A stretch of DNA of 64,000 nt, from contig CAZNMD010000002.1 in the NCBI GenBank assembly GCA_964574355.1, forward strand, positions 16,595-80,594, written 5' to 3'. A model generated the notes under the pieces. That model saw only the letters and a program-made list of their open reading frames with translations. It did not search any database and had not been told where the DNA came from. Below, in pieces: positions 5,418 through 15,988 of this stretch. The stretch comes from an uncultured Candidatus Saccharibacteria bacterium (GTDB lineage: Bacteria; Patescibacteriota; Minisyncoccia; Phycocordibacterales; DSPV01). The translations under genes and the position numbers were made by a program. Each line of letters begins with the position of its first letter. The first letter of the stretch is position 1.

Positions 5418-6769
5418 TTGTGTGGGGTGGGGCAGGAACAGTGACCGGGGCCAATTTTCTTTTGAAGATTGCTGGTAAGCGGATTTTGATTGATTGTGGA
5501 TTGCAACAAGATGGAGCAAATCCAGACGCGGTTAATCATGGAGGTTTTCCTTATGAACCAAGTTCGATTGATTTTCTTTTTGTGACCCACGCTCACATGG
5601 ATCATATCGGCCGAGTGCCCAAATTGGTTAAAGAAGGATATAAAGGAAAAATTATTTCAACTGCCGAAACAAAGGCTCTGTCAACGCTTATGCTCGCTGA
5701 TGCGGCTCGTGTCTTTGCAGATCCACGTCATAAAGAAAAAGGTCCGCCTATGTACCTTTCTTCAGATGTTGATGTGGCATTTAACCAGTGGAACGTATTG
5801 GCATATCACGAAACGTTTCCAATTTCGCACGATCTTTCGGTTCGTTTTTTAGATGCTGGACATATTCTTGGTTCGGCAATGGTTGAATTTACATTTCGTG
5901 GTGAAAAAATGGTTTTCACCGGAGATCTTGGCAACTCTCCCTCTCCTCTTTTGCGCGATACGGAAGCCATAAAAGATGTTCGCTACTTGGTGATGGAAAG
6001 TGTGTATGGTGATAGAAATCACGAGGGGAGAGATGTTCGACAGGCAAAGCTTCACAGTGCAGTTGATGACATTATTGCTCGCAAAGGAACGCTGATTATC
6101 CCATCTTTTTCTTTAGAACGAACACAGGTTATTTTGTCGGAGTTAAATGAGTTGGTAGAGGCGGGCGTTGTAAAACCACTTCCTGTTTTTCTTGACTCGC
6201 CTCTTTCGATAAAAGTTACTGACATATATCGGCACATGCGCGACAACTGGAATGATCGAATGAAAGGACGTATTGCGTCTGGAGACGAACCTTTTGCGTT
6301 TCCTCGCTTGGCGTTTACTCCTACTCGTGACGACTCTCTTCACATTCTTGCTATTAAAGGGCCAAAAATTGTTATTGCTGGATCAGGTATGAGTAATGGC
6401 GGAAGAATTATTCGACATGAAAAGGCATATTTACCGGATAAGAGAAATATTTTATTACTTGTTGGATATCAGTCTCCAGGTACGCTTGGCCGAAAAATTG
6501 CTGATGGTGATAAGAATGTTGAAATTGAAGGTGACGTAATTCCTGTTCGGGCTGAGGTTCGTCAAGTTGAGGGATACTCATCTCATAAGGGATTGGATGA
6601 TTTAGTTGCATTCGTTGAAACATCTGCCGATACGCTTAAAAAAGTGTTCGTGGCGATGGGTGAACCAAAATCTTCTATGTTTCTTGCTCAACGCCTCCAT
6701 GATTATCTAGGGGTTGATGCGATGATGCCCGAAGTAGGGAAGGAATATATATTACAGTTTCCAGAATAA
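5399..6769 (+). CDS. MBL-fold metallo-hydrolase of the beta-CASP ribonuclease type (RNase J / CPSF-like)
   Basis: VTHAHMDHIG metal-binding motif; beta-CASP-like middle and C-terminal parts; 456 aa. Confidence 0.75.
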   Translation: MEKNTLVVWGGAGTVTGANFLLKIAGKRILIDCGLQQDGANPDAVNHGGFPYEPSSIDFLFVTHAHMDHIGRVPKLVKEGYKGKIISTAETKALSTLMLADAARVFADPRHKEKGPPMYLSSDVDVAFNQWNVLAYHETFPISHDLSVRFLDAGHILGSAMVEFTFRGEKMVFTGDLGNSPSPLLRDTEAIKDVRYLVMESVYGDRNHEGRDVRQAKLHSAVDDIIARKGTLIIPSFSLERTQVILSELNELVEAGVVKPLPVFLDSPLSIKVTDIYRHMRDNWNDRMKGRIASGDEPFAFPRLAFTPTRDDSLHILAIKGPKIVIAGSGMSNGGRIIRHEKAYLPDKRNILLLVGYQSPGTLGRKIADGDKNVEIEGDVIPVRAEVRQVEGYSSHKGLDDLVAFVETSADTLKKVFVAMGEPKSSMFLAQRLHDYLGVDAMMPEVGKEYILQFPE

Positions 6770-6817
6770 GAGAGCTCTACTGTGAACCACTTTTAATTCA
6801 GAAGAAAATAACAAACA

Positions 6818-6848
6818 AAAAACTGCCTCAAGGGCAGTTTTTTGTTTG
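6818..6848. terminator. bidirectional terminator between the ribonuclease gene and rplT
   Basis: AAAAAACTGCC-tcaa-GGGCAGTTTTTTG. Confidence 0.7.
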
Positions 6849-7190
6849 TTATTTTGCTTTTGCGACGATTCGGCCAAATATTTCTGGTCGGTTTTTTGCC
6901 ATCTCAGCCAAGACTTTGCGGTTTAATTCAATTTTCTGCTTTTTCAAAGCGCCAATGAATTTGCTGTATGAGAGTTCTGTGCCCAAAGCTGCGTTGATTG
7001 AGGTGTTCCATAGGCGGCGGAAGTCACCTTTTTTGTCGCGTCGATGAGCGAAGGCATAGGCACCTGCATGAGCAAGTGCTTCATATGCTGCACGTTCTTT
7101 CTTTGATCGAGCAAAACGAAAACCTTTCGCTTGTCGAAGGACGTTGCGACGAGTTTTGAGGGCATTAACTGCTTTCTTTACACGGGTCAT
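6849..7190 (-). CDS. rplT: 50S ribosomal protein L20
   Basis: MTRVKKAVNALKTRRNVLRQAKGFRFARSK...RRLWNTSINAA. Confidence 0.9.
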   Translation of the reverse strand: MTRVKKAVNALKTRRNVLRQAKGFRFARSKKERAAYEALAHAGAYAFAHRRDKKGDFRRLWNTSINAALGTELSYSKFIGALKKQKIELNRKVLAEMAKNRPEIFGRIVAKAK

Positions 7191-7219
7191 GTGAGTAAGT
7201 GAGTATTAAAGAGGATTAA

Positions 7220-7408
7220 TTAGGCGATACCAACGAGGAAGCGGCGTTTTTCACGATTTGTAAGCTTCATAGTGGTGGTTCGGCGCTTACTGTACTGTGA
7301 GCGGCGACCTTCTTTTGCGTTGAAATGGTTTTGTCCAGCAACACGTGTCGTGATTTTGCCATTCTTCGAAACTTTGAGTCGTTTTGCGTACGATTTATTT
7401 GTTTTCAT
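7220..7408 (-). CDS. rpmI: 50S ribosomal protein L35
   Basis: 62-aa basic protein MKTNKSYAKRLKVSKNGKI... lying between infC and rplT in the conserved operon order. Confidence 0.8.
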   Translation of the reverse strand: MKTNKSYAKRLKVSKNGKITTRVAGQNHFNAKEGRRSQYSKRRTTTMKLTNREKRRFLVGIA

Positions 7409-7427
7409 AAAGATGAGTAATTTATGT

Positions 7428-7934
7428 TTAGGCTTTTTCTATAATCGTTGAGATGTTTCTTGGTCCCTTTCTTGCTGGGTCTGCGATTTTAAAGGGAACA
7501 GTAAAAAGGTTAACGGCGCGATCGAGGCGGGCTTGTAAGAACTTCGGGTCAAGATATTTTTCTCGGCCTTTAAGGAAGAGATCTACCTTAATCCGGTGTC
7601 CTTCTGAAAGCCAGTCTGAAGCCTCTTTCATTTTTCGTGACAAATCATGGTCGCTTGTACCGATGGTGATTTGCACCTGTTTTATTTCAACAGTCTGTGT
7701 TTTTGCTTTGCTTTGCTTCTGTTTTTTGCTTTCGATGTACTGGTATTTGCCGAAATCCATGATCTTTGCGATCGGTGGAGTAGCATTTGGCGAAATCTCA
7801 ATAAGGTCAAGTCCTGCGTCTTGTGCGGCTCGCAAGGCGTCACCCAAAGAGAGTTCGCCTAGGTTTGTACCATCTGCTCCGATTACTCGAAGAAGTGGTG
7901 CTTTTATCTGATGATTAACCCGTGCTTTAGACAA
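7428..7934 (-). CDS. infC: translation initiation factor IF-3, TTG start
   Basis: INHQIKAPLLRVIGADGTNLGELSLGDALRAAQDAGLDLIEISPNATPPIAKIMDFGKYQY. The first codon is TTG, in keeping with the atypical infC start codons used for autoregulation. Confidence 0.85.
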   Translation of the reverse strand: MSKARVNHQIKAPLLRVIGADGTNLGELSLGDALRAAQDAGLDLIEISPNATPPIAKIMDFGKYQYIESKKQKQSKAKTQTVEIKQVQITIGTSDHDLSRKMKEASDWLSEGHRIKVDLFLKGREKYLDPKFLQARLDRAVNLFTVPFKIADPARKGPRNISTIIEKA

Positions 7935-8000
7935 GATCTAGTTCCTTTTTGTGATAGTAACGCGGAGTTATTTATAGCATATATAGTCTTTCGACGCAAC

Positions 8001-8043
8001 AAAAAGGGCGATAAGAAAAGGGCGGGTCAAAATGTACCCGCCC
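8001..8043 (-). terminator. rho-independent terminator of small ORF P1
   Basis: Minus strand: GGGCGGGT-acatttt-GACCCGCCC followed by TTTTCTTATCGCCCTTTTT. Confidence 0.6.
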
Positions 8044-8051
8044 GTTCCTTT

Positions 8052-8270
8052 TTAGGACCTTACGACCCGATACTGTTGTGCAAAATGTGCGGCTCCACCG
8101 CACAGGATGAAATGCATGATGCAGTCTGTATTAGTTGGTTCCCGGCCTAACTCAACTCCGGTAACCCAACGATTAAAAGGGTCGTGAATAGCTATGTCTG
8201 TTTGTAAACGTAGGTACTCTCTTAGGTTAACTTCTATGGGTGCGGGGGGTTCTGTGTTTTCGGTAGGCAC
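8052..8270 (-). CDS. small hypothetical protein P1 (72 aa), paralog of P2
   Basis: GTG start preceded by AGGAGG with a 6-nt spacer; own terminator; C-terminal ...CIMHFILCGGAAHFAQQ aligns with P2 ...LINHWMTAGGAEMFHQK. Confidence 0.5.
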   Translation of the reverse strand: MPTENTEPPAPIEVNLREYLRLQTDIAIHDPFNRWVTGVELGREPTNTDCIMHFILCGGAAHFAQQYRVVRS

Positions 8271-8340
8271 AGCGCACCTCCTTTCTTTCCATAGTGTATG
8301 CCTCTCTTTTCAAGAGTCAATCTCTATGGTGGATAAATGT

Positions 8341-8382
8341 ATTTTTTTTACAAAAAAACCGAACCAAAAAACGGATTCGGTT
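8341..8382 (-). terminator. terminator of small ORF P2
   Basis: Minus strand: CCGAA...TTCGG hairpin followed by TTTTTTTGTAAAAAAAA. Confidence 0.45.
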
Positions 8383-8396
8383 GTTCTGAATATGGG

Positions 8397-8609
8397 TCAG
8401 ATACATATCTCCCCAGAGCGTATTTTTTGATGAAACATTTCTGCTCCACCAGCTGTCATCCAATGGTTGATGAGTTCAATGTTGCTTACTTCGTGCGCTG
8501 GTTTTTGTAGTGCCCATGCGGTATTTCGTCGATGATCCTCGTCACTAAGAATTGTTCCTAGTTCTCTCTCGGCAAGTCGGTCTCCTGGCATTGAATATTG
8601 GTCACACAC
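8397..8609 (-). CDS. small hypothetical protein P2 (~70 aa from the GTG start), paralog of P1
   Basis: AGGAGG, 6 nt, then GTG, the same arrangement as P1. The ORF track's longer version (to 8699) lacks a ribosome-binding site. Sequence MCDQYSMPGDRLAERELGTILSDEDHRR...NHWMTAGGAEMFHQKIRSGEICI. Confidence 0.45.
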   Translation of the reverse strand: MCDQYSMPGDRLAERELGTILSDEDHRRNTAWALQKPAHEVSNIELINHWMTAGGAEMFHQKIRSGEICI

Positions 8610-8734
8610 AGAACCCCTCCTTGTTTTTGTCTTCTTATAGTGTACGCTTCTTGATTTTATACAACAAGCCACTTGTGAACTGTGGTACATAAATAACACC
8701 GCAGTCAGGATAACCCTGGTGCGGTGTGTTTGGC

Positions 8735-8977
8735 TTATGGATATTCGATCCAGCCATGTTGTCCTTTTGGGGTAAAGTTCACGGTTGCCTGTGGTTCTTC
8801 TGCAAAGCCGATAACATGAGTTCTTCCTCGAAATGTAATGGAGTTATTGGTCTCCATGTGAGAAGATTCGACGATAAAAAGGATTCTAACGTCTCCACTT
8901 CGAAACAGCAGTTTTTTCCTTTGGGGGTCGAACTTCTTTGGACCGCCCGTAAGGGGAAAGCGATCTGTTCGTCTCAT
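8735..8977 (-). CDS. small hypothetical protein P3 (80 aa)
   Basis: ATG preceded by AGGAG; unrelated in sequence to P1/P2; followed by a hairpin. Confidence 0.45.
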   Translation of the reverse strand: MRRTDRFPLTGGPKKFDPQRKKLLFRSGDVRILFIVESSHMETNNSITFRGRTHVIGFAEEPQATVNFTPKGQHGWIEYP

Positions 8978-9037
8978 AATCTCCTATAACCATACTCATC
9001 TTTTTTCTTTTGTCACGTGGTGAGTAAGGTTGTATGT

Positions 9038-9496
9038 TTATGAAAGATATTTTTTACTTGCCCAGTAATAGACGAGTACGCGTAAGGCAAATGCCGTCAT
9101 TTCAATGTATCCACTGAGGTTATAGGTATAAAACAAAAGACCATATATGCGGGCACACCCACTGACGATGAGTATATATAACGTAGAAAGCAGTAGTATT
9201 TCTTTTGGGTCAAATCCTTGATAGCTGTGCTTTATAACTCGTGTTGAGTAGAGAACCCCAAGGAAGGTGATAAGCGGATACACAAAAACAGTTACTATGT
9301 TTTTCCAGAAAAAATCTGCTTGTATAAATGTTGACCAAGTAAGGTCAAAGGCGAGCCCAAGAAGCATTGGGATCATAAAACCTGCCTGTAGCCAATGAAG
9401 CAGGGCAATTTTCCAGCTTTCTGTTTTTTTCTTAGCGTGCATGGGGTGGTGTATATGGTCTACCCGCCGCTTCTTCACGATGAACCATTTCTTCAT
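9038..9496 (-). CDS. integral membrane protein
   Basis: 152 aa, 4 predicted transmembrane helices, basic N-terminus; a 50-codon hydrophobic upstream ORF overlaps its start. Confidence 0.55.
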   Translation of the reverse strand: MKKWFIVKKRRVDHIHHPMHAKKKTESWKIALLHWLQAGFMIPMLLGLAFDLTWSTFIQADFFWKNIVTVFVYPLITFLGVLYSTRVIKHSYQGFDPKEILLLSTLYILIVSGCARIYGLLFYTYNLSGYIEMTAFALRVLVYYWASKKYLS

Positions 9497-9719
9497 AATT
9501 GTTCACAAAAATTCTATATCCTTCAGCAACAGCAATTTCAAAAATGAGTATTGAAAAAGCTATAATGAGTGTGATGCGGAGAGATTTGGTCATTTGTTTT
9601 TAGTAGTGTCCTTAATAGTACCATCGGTGAGCATCGCGTCTTTAGGTACCGTTTAAATAGTATATTGTTATAATGAAAAGGCGGGGAAAATAGTATATTA
9701 ATTATTTAACGTAACGTAT

Positions 9720-9968
9720 ATGGAAACTCCTTCAGGTGGTGACGAGACAATGAAAAAGCTTGAGTCAACGCTTGCGTTTGTTGGGCCATTGTCTCCAGAA
9801 CAAAAGGCCAGGGCTATAGAGGTTTGTGAAACTCCTCTTGAAAATACATGGGCAATTGTAAAGGCAGATGGAACGATTGAGTATCGTGTTTCAAATACAG
9901 AAGATGGTTCTGATGTGTTGGGAAGTGAAGTAGAAGCCGATGTTGTTGCAGCCGGGTTTCTTGGGTAA
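9720..9968 (+). CDS. small hypothetical protein (likely starts at the internal ATG, MKKLESTLAF...)
   Basis: ORF preceded by an extended -10 (TGtTATAAT) and GGTGGTGA; followed by a terminator. Confidence 0.4.
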   Translation: METPSGGDETMKKLESTLAFVGPLSPEQKARAIEVCETPLENTWAIVKADGTIEYRVSNTEDGSDVLGSEVEADVVAAGFLG

Positions 9969-10039: not shown

Positions 10040-10486
10040 TTATGCTGCCATGTTGGTGTGAATCAACACTTCCTCTGGTTCCCAGTAGATGTCACCTCCT
10101 TCCTGATCAGAGGTGACAACATAGATGTGTCCCACTCCACCAATAGCTTCACGGGGACAGTAGAGTGCGTGAGGAACTCCGGCTGGTACGACGATCGCAC
10201 CTTGCTGTTGAGGGTTTCTGCTGACGATCTCCCCGTTCATTTCCATGAGAATGGTGACATCTCCCCATTGGTGGATGTACACCTTTTCTTTCTGAACGTG
10301 TTTATGGAAGGGTGTTGCCGAACCTGCCACCATACAGACCTTGCGTATGCCAAGTGTTCTTGATCGAGGACTTGCCTCGTCATCAGTTACCGCGATGGGT
10401 AGTAGGGTCCCATTTCCTGTGTATGGTTTGAAAATCCGTGTTCCTTTGGAAACGTGATTGAGAATGTTGGGTAAGATAATAGTCAC
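10040..10486 (-). CDS. cupin-domain protein
   Basis: HKHVQKEKVYIHQWGDVTIL ... VVPAGVPHAL, the two cupin motifs. Confidence 0.65.
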   Translation of the reverse strand: MTIILPNILNHVSKGTRIFKPYTGNGTLLPIAVTDDEASPRSRTLGIRKVCMVAGSATPFHKHVQKEKVYIHQWGDVTILMEMNGEIVSRNPQQQGAIVVPAGVPHALYCPREAIGGVGHIYVVTSDQEGGDIYWEPEEVLIHTNMAA

Positions 10487-10650: not shown

Positions 10651-10983
10651 CTAGGTTGCACGGACCGTTTGTTTTGCTTTTTCTTGATGTCTGCGGGCAA
10701 GCTTGTAGAAGGGGCAGTTATGGAACAAACCAGCAAGTTGTGCAAAGTCGTCCCGTCGCGTGAAATTCGCGCACTTGAAACAGTAGGTGTTTCTATTTGT
10801 GTGGCGAATGTGTCGGTGGCTTACATCGCTTGTTTCATGAATCCAATCGAATGTTCGACGAGAGCCGCATTTTGGACACTTACTTCCAAGCAGTCTCAAA
10901 AAATCAAAAAACAAGTAGAATACGCCGAGGATCAGAGCCAGAACGATTATGAAGGCCAAAATACCTAATATCTTGAGGAGCAT
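10651..10983 (-). CDS. membrane-anchored zinc-ribbon protein
   Basis: N-terminal transmembrane helix, then CPKCG ... CFKC cysteine pairs. Confidence 0.5.
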   Translation of the reverse strand: MLLKILGILAFIIVLALILGVFYLFFDFLRLLGSKCPKCGSRRTFDWIHETSDVSHRHIRHTNRNTYCFKCANFTRRDDFAQLAGLFHNCPFYKLARRHQEKAKQTVRAT

Positions 10984-15603: not shown

Positions 15604-15988
15604 TGGTGGAGATGGGGGGAATCGAACCCCCGTGCAAGATGAAAATCTAGGCGGGTCTACGGCACGTAGTCTGCTTTGTTTACGAGAGTGAAGATAGAAA
15701 GCGGACAAAAGTCTTCATTCTCGGTGTTTCTTTATTTAAAACAATAGCCGAAACGATCTACTGTTCGAACTTGGGATATATCGCCCGCTTTCCTCGTCCA
15801 AGTGCCGAAGAAAGAGACGTCACGTAGGACTAACCGAAGTTAGGCGAACGCGAGAGCAAAACCGTACGGAGACGGAATTGCCTTGGTCACAGAGCTGTTG
15901 CCAGGTGTGTTTTGAAGCGGTTTAACGAGTCACTTCATCTCGGTGCCGCGCGCAAAGAGTGTGCATCCTGTCGATGCCGATCATCCCC
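15604..15988 (-). ncRNA. ssrA: tmRNA (SsrA), standard one-piece form
   Basis: 5' end GGGGATGATCGGCATCGACAGGATGC resembles E. coli GGGGCTGATTCTGGATTCGACGGGAT. 3' tRNA-like end GGGGGTTCGATTCCCCCCATCTCCACCA. Candidate tag frame ...AIPSPYGFALAFA followed by TAA. Confidence 0.85.

Follow-up and report, generated by a model that had tools for sequence, protein, structure and literature searches.

Sequence evidence for two divergent members of an uncurated small-protein family and a clade-specific orphan upstream of infC in a Patescibacteria genome

Upstream of infC, in a 64,000-nucleotide stretch of DNA from an uncultured Candidatus Saccharibacteria bacterium (GenBank assembly GCA_964574355.1, contig CAZNMD010000002.1, positions 16,595 to 80,594; 41% GC; hereafter the window), three small open reading frames (ORFs), termed P1, P2 and P3, lie side by side on the minus strand. 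Our analysis indicates that all three are genuine protein-coding genes, each transcribed separately, in a genome of the Patescibacteria (candidate phyla radiation, CPR; Paceibacteria-type), that P1 and P2 are divergent paralogs within one conserved, uncurated family, and that P3 is a basic orphan specific to its clade. We consider it probable that P1 and P2 represent a family of soluble, acidic proteins, predicted to form four helices, that has no fixed gene partner. An initial annotation, made by a model that saw only this DNA and its ORFs, had described three genes for small proteins, each with a strong Shine–Dalgarno site and a terminator of its own; our results support three monocistronic genes with strong signals for translation.

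P1 and P2 are related at the profile level

P1 (8052–8270, minus strand) and P2 (8397–8609, minus strand) encode proteins of 72 and 70 amino acids, respectively; both start with GTG and both products have an isoelectric point (pI) of 5.4. The initial annotation had aligned the two proteins over their length. Because BLASTP found no alignment between P1 and P2 at E ≤ 100, such a pairwise alignment is not significant alone. BLASTP also failed to align P1 with P0004, a 66-amino-acid protein encoded at the P2 position of a syntenic related genome (L001), and its match between P2 and P0004 was limited to a 15-amino-acid GGAE.F stretch. In word-indexed homolog searches, P1 retrieved itself and one ortholog and P2 retrieved only itself, whereas an alignment query added one further protein, P0005.

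What did stand from the earlier alignment was homology between profiles. To limit circularity, we built a leave-out profile from the family without the proteins of this clade (P0001–4 and P0006) and used it to score 13,095 ORFs, taken from the window and from the loci fetched for comparison. With hmmsearch, this profile matched P1 at 81.3 bits (E = 2.3e-23), the 72-amino-acid P2-slot protein of a more distant relative (L085) at E = 2e-8, P0004 at E = 3e-6 and P2 itself at 20.1 bits (E = 2.8e-4); the best unrelated ORF reached E = 0.09. Using hhalign, P2 alone matched the family without this clade at 89.5% (E = 2e-6), and the three P2-slot proteins jointly matched the family at 96.6% (E = 5e-10). 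These leave-out profile and hhalign matches confirm P1 and P2 as divergent paralogs.

In an ungapped register of 31 residues, P2 (NTAWALQKPAHEVSNIELINHWMTAGGAEMF) and P1 (NRWVTGVELGREPTNTDCIMHFILCGGAAHF) agree at N, E, N, I, H, GGA and F, and the P2-position proteins of L001 and L085 also bear the GGAE.F motif. P1 has all of the core family residues (N33, W/Y35, P45, H53, an aromatic residue at 54, G58, G59 and F63). P2 has the N, H, W, GG and F, carries V at position 45 and lacks the W/Y.

An uncurated family of soluble small proteins

An exhaustive HMMER search of 1.84 billion representative proteins, using a profile built from P1 and its orthologs together with P2 and P0004, matched 127 of them at E ≤ 1e-3, nearly all 60–90 amino acids long, and defines a family of about 120 cluster representatives. 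A 1,789-amino-acid repeat protein among these hits (P0072) is evidently spurious. The consensus of a 102-member alignment (A3) reads ..L.EYL..Q.EE.LSP.NRW.TGE.LGH.PT..E...HYI.HGGAE.FA., with the core motif Q..E....P.NRW.TG..LGH.PT..E...HY..HGGA..F, or NRW...HGGA..F in short. Four positions (N33, P45, G58 and G59) are kept in at least 90% of the 102 members, and W/Y35, H/R43, E49, H53, Y/F/W54 and F63 in 80–100%. The median length is 72 amino acids and the median pI 5.6, and 82% of the members are net acidic. None of the 102 contains a 19-residue window resembling a transmembrane or signal segment (none reaches 1.6 on the Kyte–Doolittle scale). The AlphaFold2 model of P1, a check that the initial annotation had proposed, is confident, with a predicted local distance difference test (pLDDT) score of 87, and consists of four helices and short terminal strands.

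The initial annotation could assign no family, in agreement with the absence of a curated one in Pfam, NCBIfam, PHROGs and PADLOC. These four collections gave no match for P1, P2 or P3 (Pfam, NCBIfam and PADLOC at E ≤ 1), nor for a membrane protein, a mini-ORF product and an 82-amino-acid protein encoded beyond P3. Pfam searches with the 102 members produced scattered noise only (40 families matched in all), the PDB and BFVD contained no sequence or fold match for the family, and a literature search by its motif strings found no paper. In the source databases, members are named 'hypothetical protein' at most.

Members come from uncultivated bacteria, where they are encoded singly, side by side as here or as two-copy fusions, on contigs of 33–53% GC. 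This spread in GC, together with a Por_Secre_tail gene neighbouring one member, which points outside the CPR, indicates that the family extends beyond a single lineage. Searching with the consensus by tblastn gave no match in 50,697 phage or 72,556 plasmid records; two pattern scans detected a single member on an IMG/VR contig (P0015), and a metagenome scan with a closer subset of the family detected a single locus. About ten proteins naturally contain two copies of the domain (P0008, P0016, P0047, P0059, P0068, P0078, P0094, P0096, P0097 and P0115), joined by linkers of very different lengths, and thus parallel the adjacent P2 and P1 genes. Tandem duplication, as neighbouring genes or as a fusion, is therefore a recurrent state of this family. 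In another member, P0070, a C-terminal region of 120 amino acids looked receiver-like by eye; Pfam and the PDB gave no support for this assignment.

Each small gene has its own expression signals

The lengths and starts given in the initial annotation proved correct for all three genes. In P1 and P2, the GTG start codon follows AGGAGG by six nucleotides (Shine–Dalgarno sequences at 8277–8282 and 8616–8621, respectively, both minus strand; that of P1 is kept in L001 and L085). The 70 amino acids of P2 are counted from this Shine–Dalgarno-linked GTG, as the mechanical ORF reaches 8699. Across the 64 kb, the pattern AGGAGG-N6-GTG occurs at two sites only, those of P1 and P2, against an expectation of 0.28 from shuffled sequence, and two or more sites appeared in 2 out of 100 shuffles. 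P3 (8735–8977, minus strand) encodes a protein of 80 amino acids with a pI of 10.3 and starts with ATG three nucleotides after AGGAG.

Upstream of P1, a promoter scan called a promoter-like site, TTGACT-16-TACACT (8293–8320, minus strand), whose −35 and −10 elements are kept in a DNA alignment of the window, L001 and L085; the same three-genome alignment also retains the Shine–Dalgarno sequence, the start codon and the flanking terminators of P1. For P2, a candidate promoter found by eye and not called by the scan reads TTGTTG-17-TACACT (8639–8667, minus strand): its −10 element (8639–8644) is identical to that of P1, and its −35 element is poor. The promoter-like site of P3, GTGACA-16-TATGGT (8989–9016, minus strand), is a consensus match only.

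The initial annotation had also given every gene its own rho-independent terminator, which we could support fully for two of the three. P1 is followed by a hairpin with an 8-bp stem, including seven GC pairs, and a T run (8020–8043, minus strand; −22.2 kcal/mol, z = −4.4), beyond which lies the infC promoter region, and a hairpin is found at the same position in L001 and L085. The P2 terminator (8357–8382, minus strand) has a 9-bp stem and a T7 run (−14.2 kcal/mol, z = −2.75). The hairpin after P3 (approximately 8696–8727, minus strand) also folds strongly (−18.9 kcal/mol, z = −3.4), but its weak U tract, UAUUUAU, makes it the least convincing terminator of the three, and the terminator scan did not call it. 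Searching positions 7350–9750 against Rfam at E ≤ 1 revealed no RNA family, and no element of the L20-leader type.

P1 and P3 are under purifying selection

Exact-protein look-ups provided the related genomes used throughout, namely the syntenic L001 and a more distant pair, L084/L085. The initial annotation would have been refuted by a lack of expression together with a lack of ORF conservation in related genomes; orthologs of P1 and P3 are present in L001 and L085. Compared with its ortholog P0002 in L001, P1 shows 72% amino acid identity and a ratio of non-synonymous to synonymous substitution rates (dN/dS) of 0.27. P3 shows 62% identity and a dN/dS of 0.21 in the same comparison, and 58% identity to its L085 ortholog. 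For reference, the values against L001 are 80% and 0.09 for the membrane protein, 79% and 0.11 for the mini-ORF product, and 98% and 0.02 for the translation initiation factor IF3. P1 and P3 thus evolve under purifying selection, at a much faster pace than their housekeeping neighbours. Low dN/dS values, together with the retained expression signals of P1, show that P1 and P3 are real, selected genes. P2 has no alignable ortholog for a dN/dS estimate, and its coding status rests on family membership.

It could be argued that the three ORFs are spurious and stay open merely by chance between genes, given that BLASTP fails to link P1 and P2 and that P2 retrieves only itself from the 5.8 billion proteins of the word-indexed search. 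This explanation is almost certainly wrong. For P1 and P3 it is already refuted by dN/dS values well under 1, and it would have to accommodate 127 family matches, a confident structural model, expression signals kept among relatives and an AGGAGG-N6-GTG arrangement that is unique to the P1 and P2 starts.

Family members have no common gene neighbour

We compared twelve independent genomic contexts of family members and found no neighbour gene common to them. In the present clade the family lies upstream of infC. Elsewhere, members are located after rplS; between a CDF transporter gene (Cation_efflux; upstream, same strand) and a CYTH gene (L086); with a CNNM/CBS gene 67 bp downstream on the same strand (L087–89); near GIY-YIG and rpoD–dnaG; 35 bp after a class-Ib tRNA synthetase gene, on the contig that carries the Por_Secre_tail gene; alone beside a gene for a large secreted protein; on an IMG/VR contig; between a cold-shock-domain gene and a stand-alone Response_reg gene 15 bp downstream (P0021; L096, 549–1521); in the vicinity of cupin and RRM genes; close to ABC and GNAT genes; and near sugar-metabolism genes. 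RRM_1 genes were seen a few genes away from two members (L086 and L097). The IMG/VR member, P0015, occupies positions 986–1141 of L095 (UViG_3300020045_011221, classed as viral), close to an HU/IHF-like gene and a gene for a 1,068-amino-acid protein.

These contexts bear on the functions that the initial annotation had entertained. A toxin–antitoxin or toxin–immunity module formed by P1 and P2, possibly with P3, would be in keeping with the adjacency of the small genes, with a P2 slot that turns over fast, as conflict genes often do, and with the combination of a basic P3 and acidic P1 and P2. We nevertheless regard such a module as very improbable. The two proteins are homologous, unlike the unrelated toxin and antidote that a type II pair encodes in one operon, and natural fusions in the family join two copies of the same domain. 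Each gene has its own Shine–Dalgarno sequence, promoter-like site and terminator; indeed, the P2 terminator (8357–8382) and the P1 promoter-like site (8293–8320) lie between P2 and P1. Most family members are solitary and have no conserved neighbour, and Pfam, NCBIfam and PADLOC gave no toxin–antitoxin or defence match at E ≤ 1. On these grounds the toxin/immunity proposal is largely refuted.

The suggestion of secreted peptides fared no better. With approximately 70 amino acids, an acidic and helical character and a near-invariant Gly-Gly about 12 residues before the C terminus, P1 and P2 resemble the long Nif11/NHLP-type leaders, ending in Gly-Gly, of ribosomally synthesized and post-translationally modified peptide (RiPP) precursors. 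However, P1, P2 and P3 all lack a hydrophobic N terminus (maximum 19-residue Kyte–Doolittle windows of 0.79, 0.36 and 0.75, respectively), as do the 102 family members any transmembrane- or signal-like window. The signal peptide or double-glycine leader of Sec-secreted peptides and class II bacteriocins is likewise absent, the Gly-Gly of P1 and P2 being C-terminal. Residues after the Gly-Gly are conserved (A60 and F63) instead of hypervariable, profile models of the leaders (Pfam Nif11, NCBIfam TIGR03793 and TIGR03798) gave no match, and none of the 12 contexts has modification, maturation or export genes nearby. A secreted or RiPP-precursor role is therefore largely refuted, and we rate it as even more remote than a toxin module.

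The main rival to our account casts P1 and P2 as small proteins that bind a metal or another ligand, for example as metallochaperones or buffers, and whose site would be formed by E49, C/A50, H53 and H/C57 on one face of helix 3, together with H43. Several of these columns are well populated in the 102-member alignment (H/R43 in 97 members, E49 in 87, H53 in 80, H57 in 42, C50 in 36 and C57 in 11), and in 2 of the 12 contexts, those of L086 and L087–89, the family gene stands beside a divalent-cation transporter gene on the same strand. By contrast, the motifs T46-x-x-E49 and S/P-x-N33 resemble helix-capping boxes, so much of the family conservation may be structural. The cysteine at position 50 is not conserved (A in 38, C in 36 and L in 19 members), most putative ligands are missing from P2 and P0004, the other 10 contexts contain no transporter and no Pfam metal-binding family was matched. 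Taken together, we consider a metal- or ligand-binding role unlikely.

P1 is stable beside infC and the P2 slot is not

The order cupin-like gene ... P3–P2 slot–P1–infC–rpmI–rplT is common to the window, L001 and the L084/L085 relatives represented by L085, and the arrangement P3–P2–P1–infC is inherited within the clade, with P1 conserved. The downstream anchor of this order is infC (7428–7934, minus strand), the IF3 product of which matches Pfam IF3_N (6e-26) and IF3_C (5e-11); rpmI and then rplT follow. A non-AUG start codon is a classic hallmark of IF3 autoregulation, and infC appears to start here with TTG (7932–7934), which is identical, together with its surroundings, in L001 and L085. 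The IF3 of L001 is 98% identical to that of the window. In a homolog search, the window IF3 had its best relatives, at 51–63% identity, in metagenome-assembled genomes (MAGs) that bear the labels Nomurabacteria, Taylorbacteria, Paceibacterota, Parcubacteria and Saccharibacteria, which places the window in a Patescibacteria/CPR genome lacking a close representative at species level.

A blastn comparison of the window with L001 was collinear on both flanks of the P2 slot, with 74% and 85% identity. For positions 8350–8684 of the window, which coincide exactly with the P2 gene, its promoter and its terminator, L001 offers nothing comparable at the DNA level and instead contains at this position (5945–7840) a 463-amino-acid NMO-like gene on the opposite strand and a different family member, P0004. 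The P2 slot has thus either been replaced or evolves far faster than its flanks. The boundaries of this hotspot are the P3 terminator and the P1 promoter.

The position of P1 directly upstream of infC in three related genomes raises the question of whether P1 and P2 are helix–turn–helix-like nucleic-acid-binding regulators of neighbours such as infC, which would be in keeping with their small, helical nature. We looked for the family motif at 80 other Paceibacteria infC loci, where it was absent except for one weak candidate. This 72-amino-acid ORF, in an unrelated Paceibacteria MAG (L040, 5604–5822, minus strand), lies divergently upstream of infC and weakly resembles the family (E = 0.09 with hmmsearch; 76% and E = 2e-5 with hhalign). 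Its position may be due to chance or to another, independent association with infC. For a DNA-binding regulator we sought a helix–turn–helix fold or profile match combined with a basic surface, and this combination was not found in P1 and P2. A regulator of this kind is, in our estimation, quite improbable. The broader label of regulatory small proteins, also raised in the initial annotation, may still apply.

P3 and neighbouring genes

P3 differs from P1 and P2 in being basic and lying outside their family, in line with the initial annotation, which had called it unrelated. We found it only in the window, L001 and L084/L085, and scans of Pfam, NCBIfam, PHROG, PADLOC, the PDB, phage, plasmid, IMG/VR and metagenome sequences gave no match; P3 is thus a clade-specific orphan.

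The trio was described as lying between the infC promoter and a membrane protein whose gene overlaps a hydrophobic mini-ORF, and both of these genes are present. The membrane protein (9038–9496, minus strand) has three to four transmembrane spans and is outside the P1/P2 family; the mini-ORF (9432–9593, minus strand) encodes 53 amino acids with a single transmembrane segment. The likely true start of the membrane protein is an ATG at 9442, the mini-ORF stop lies 11 nucleotides inside the gene and the same overlap is called in L001, and this 11-nucleotide overlap suggests translational coupling of the two. Next to them, on the plus strand, is the gene for an acidic 82-amino-acid protein (9720–9968; dN/dS 0.09), kept in related contigs. 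The block of membrane-protein gene, mini-ORF and 82-amino-acid gene is present in the window and L001 and absent in L085; in L084, too, the membrane protein and the mini-ORF are missing.

Farther upstream on the minus strand, and likewise kept in related contigs, are genes for a cupin-like protein of 148 amino acids (10040–10486; Pfam Cupin_1 at E = 0.13 only) and for a 110-amino-acid protein with an N-terminal transmembrane segment and CxxC...C motifs (10651–10983); apart from this weak cupin match, neither could be assigned to a family. The window also carries a tmRNA gene (15604–15988, minus strand; Rfam RF00023, 113 bits), and seven tRNA genes elsewhere.

Discussion

Beyond the soluble, acidic, predicted four-helix family without a fixed gene partner, which we think probable, our ideas on the role of P1 and P2 are tentative. 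The consensus-like −35 element and optimal Shine–Dalgarno sequences suggest that they would be made in good amounts. We propose that they could stay in the cytoplasm as small binding modules and there modulate a partner protein, perhaps in the form of dimers or pseudo-dimers; they would be neither enzymes nor secreted peptides nor components of a toxin–antitoxin system. The adjacency to infC would most likely reflect lineage history rather than a functional coupling. This proposal, taken as a whole, is possible and by no means assured; the two-copy proteins provide a hint of dimerisation.

Several observations weigh against this account. The P1–P2 relationship escapes BLASTP, and the leave-out score of P2 is modest at 20 bits. 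Moreover, the leave-out test is not fully independent for P2, because P2 and P0004 were themselves part of the profile that gathered the family hits. The AlphaFold2 model of the two-copy protein P0016 has confident domains and a predicted template modelling score (pTM) of 0.43, and so lends no support to a defined dimer interface. The ORF beside infC in L040 would also fit a functional link to infC, and the conserved His, Glu and Cys residues may mark a metal or ligand site instead.

Among known systems, a functional analogy exists with small acidic helical modulators such as the anti-adaptors IraP, IraD and IraM and connector proteins. These modulators act by binding a partner protein, and they share with P1 and P2 a stand-alone, monocistronic, small, soluble and acidic character without enzymatic motifs; P1 and P2 may work in a comparable way, and they have no sequence or fold similarity to these proteins. 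A further lead, and not a demonstrated relationship, came from HKWYLSE..G.D.G...A..DW, the C-terminal motif of DUF4032 (PF13224). A peptide with this motif matched positions 136–161 of the Pfam DUF4032 model, which establishes the origin of the motif only. By eye, DUF4032 and the family core share an aromatic residue and, counted from it, glycine at +7, a basic side chain at +8 and a second aromatic one at +19, and neither has an assigned function. DUF4032, however, is a 163-position domain of larger proteins, whereas the family consists of stand-alone proteins of about 70 amino acids. Pfam did not detect the resemblance: the family consensus gave no match at E ≤ 10 and P1 and P2 none at E ≤ 1, and DUF4032 was not one of the 25 families listed as most often matched by the 102 members.

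Conserved small proteins that stand alone and are annotated as hypothetical are very common in CPR genomes, and nothing here indicates a new kind of system or settles an open question. For Patescibacteria, the AGNOSTOS catalogue records 54,343 clusters of unknown function that are specific to a lineage and comprise 283,874 genes (PMC9132574); genes without a known function are therefore very common in this group. P3 and the membrane-protein/mini-ORF pair fit this class, and the P1/P2 family probably does, with the difference that it spans more than one lineage. The practical value of our results lies mainly in annotation: P1, P2 and P3 would be annotated as real genes, two of them as paralogs, that are neither toxin–antitoxin components nor secreted peptides.

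In a bolder version, which we judge rather unlikely, P1 and P2 would define a new small-protein domain, with a fold not in the PDB, that serves as a homodimeric, heterodimeric or fused pseudo-dimeric modulator of a conserved cellular machine in the CPR and other uncultivated bacteria; P1 would be its stable copy beside infC, and P2 a fast-turnover cassette that adapts as its partner changes, for example a host, a phage or a stress factor. Should the family prove to be a real functional module, it would add a compact new domain of about 50 core residues to the large unknown fraction of the Patescibacteria proteome, one that has neither a curated model nor a fold match in the PDB or BFVD and for which some 100 aligned members and a confident AlphaFold2 model are now at hand. 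Its tandem, fused and swapped-slot forms lead to testable hypotheses on dimerisation and on rapid adaptation to a partner.

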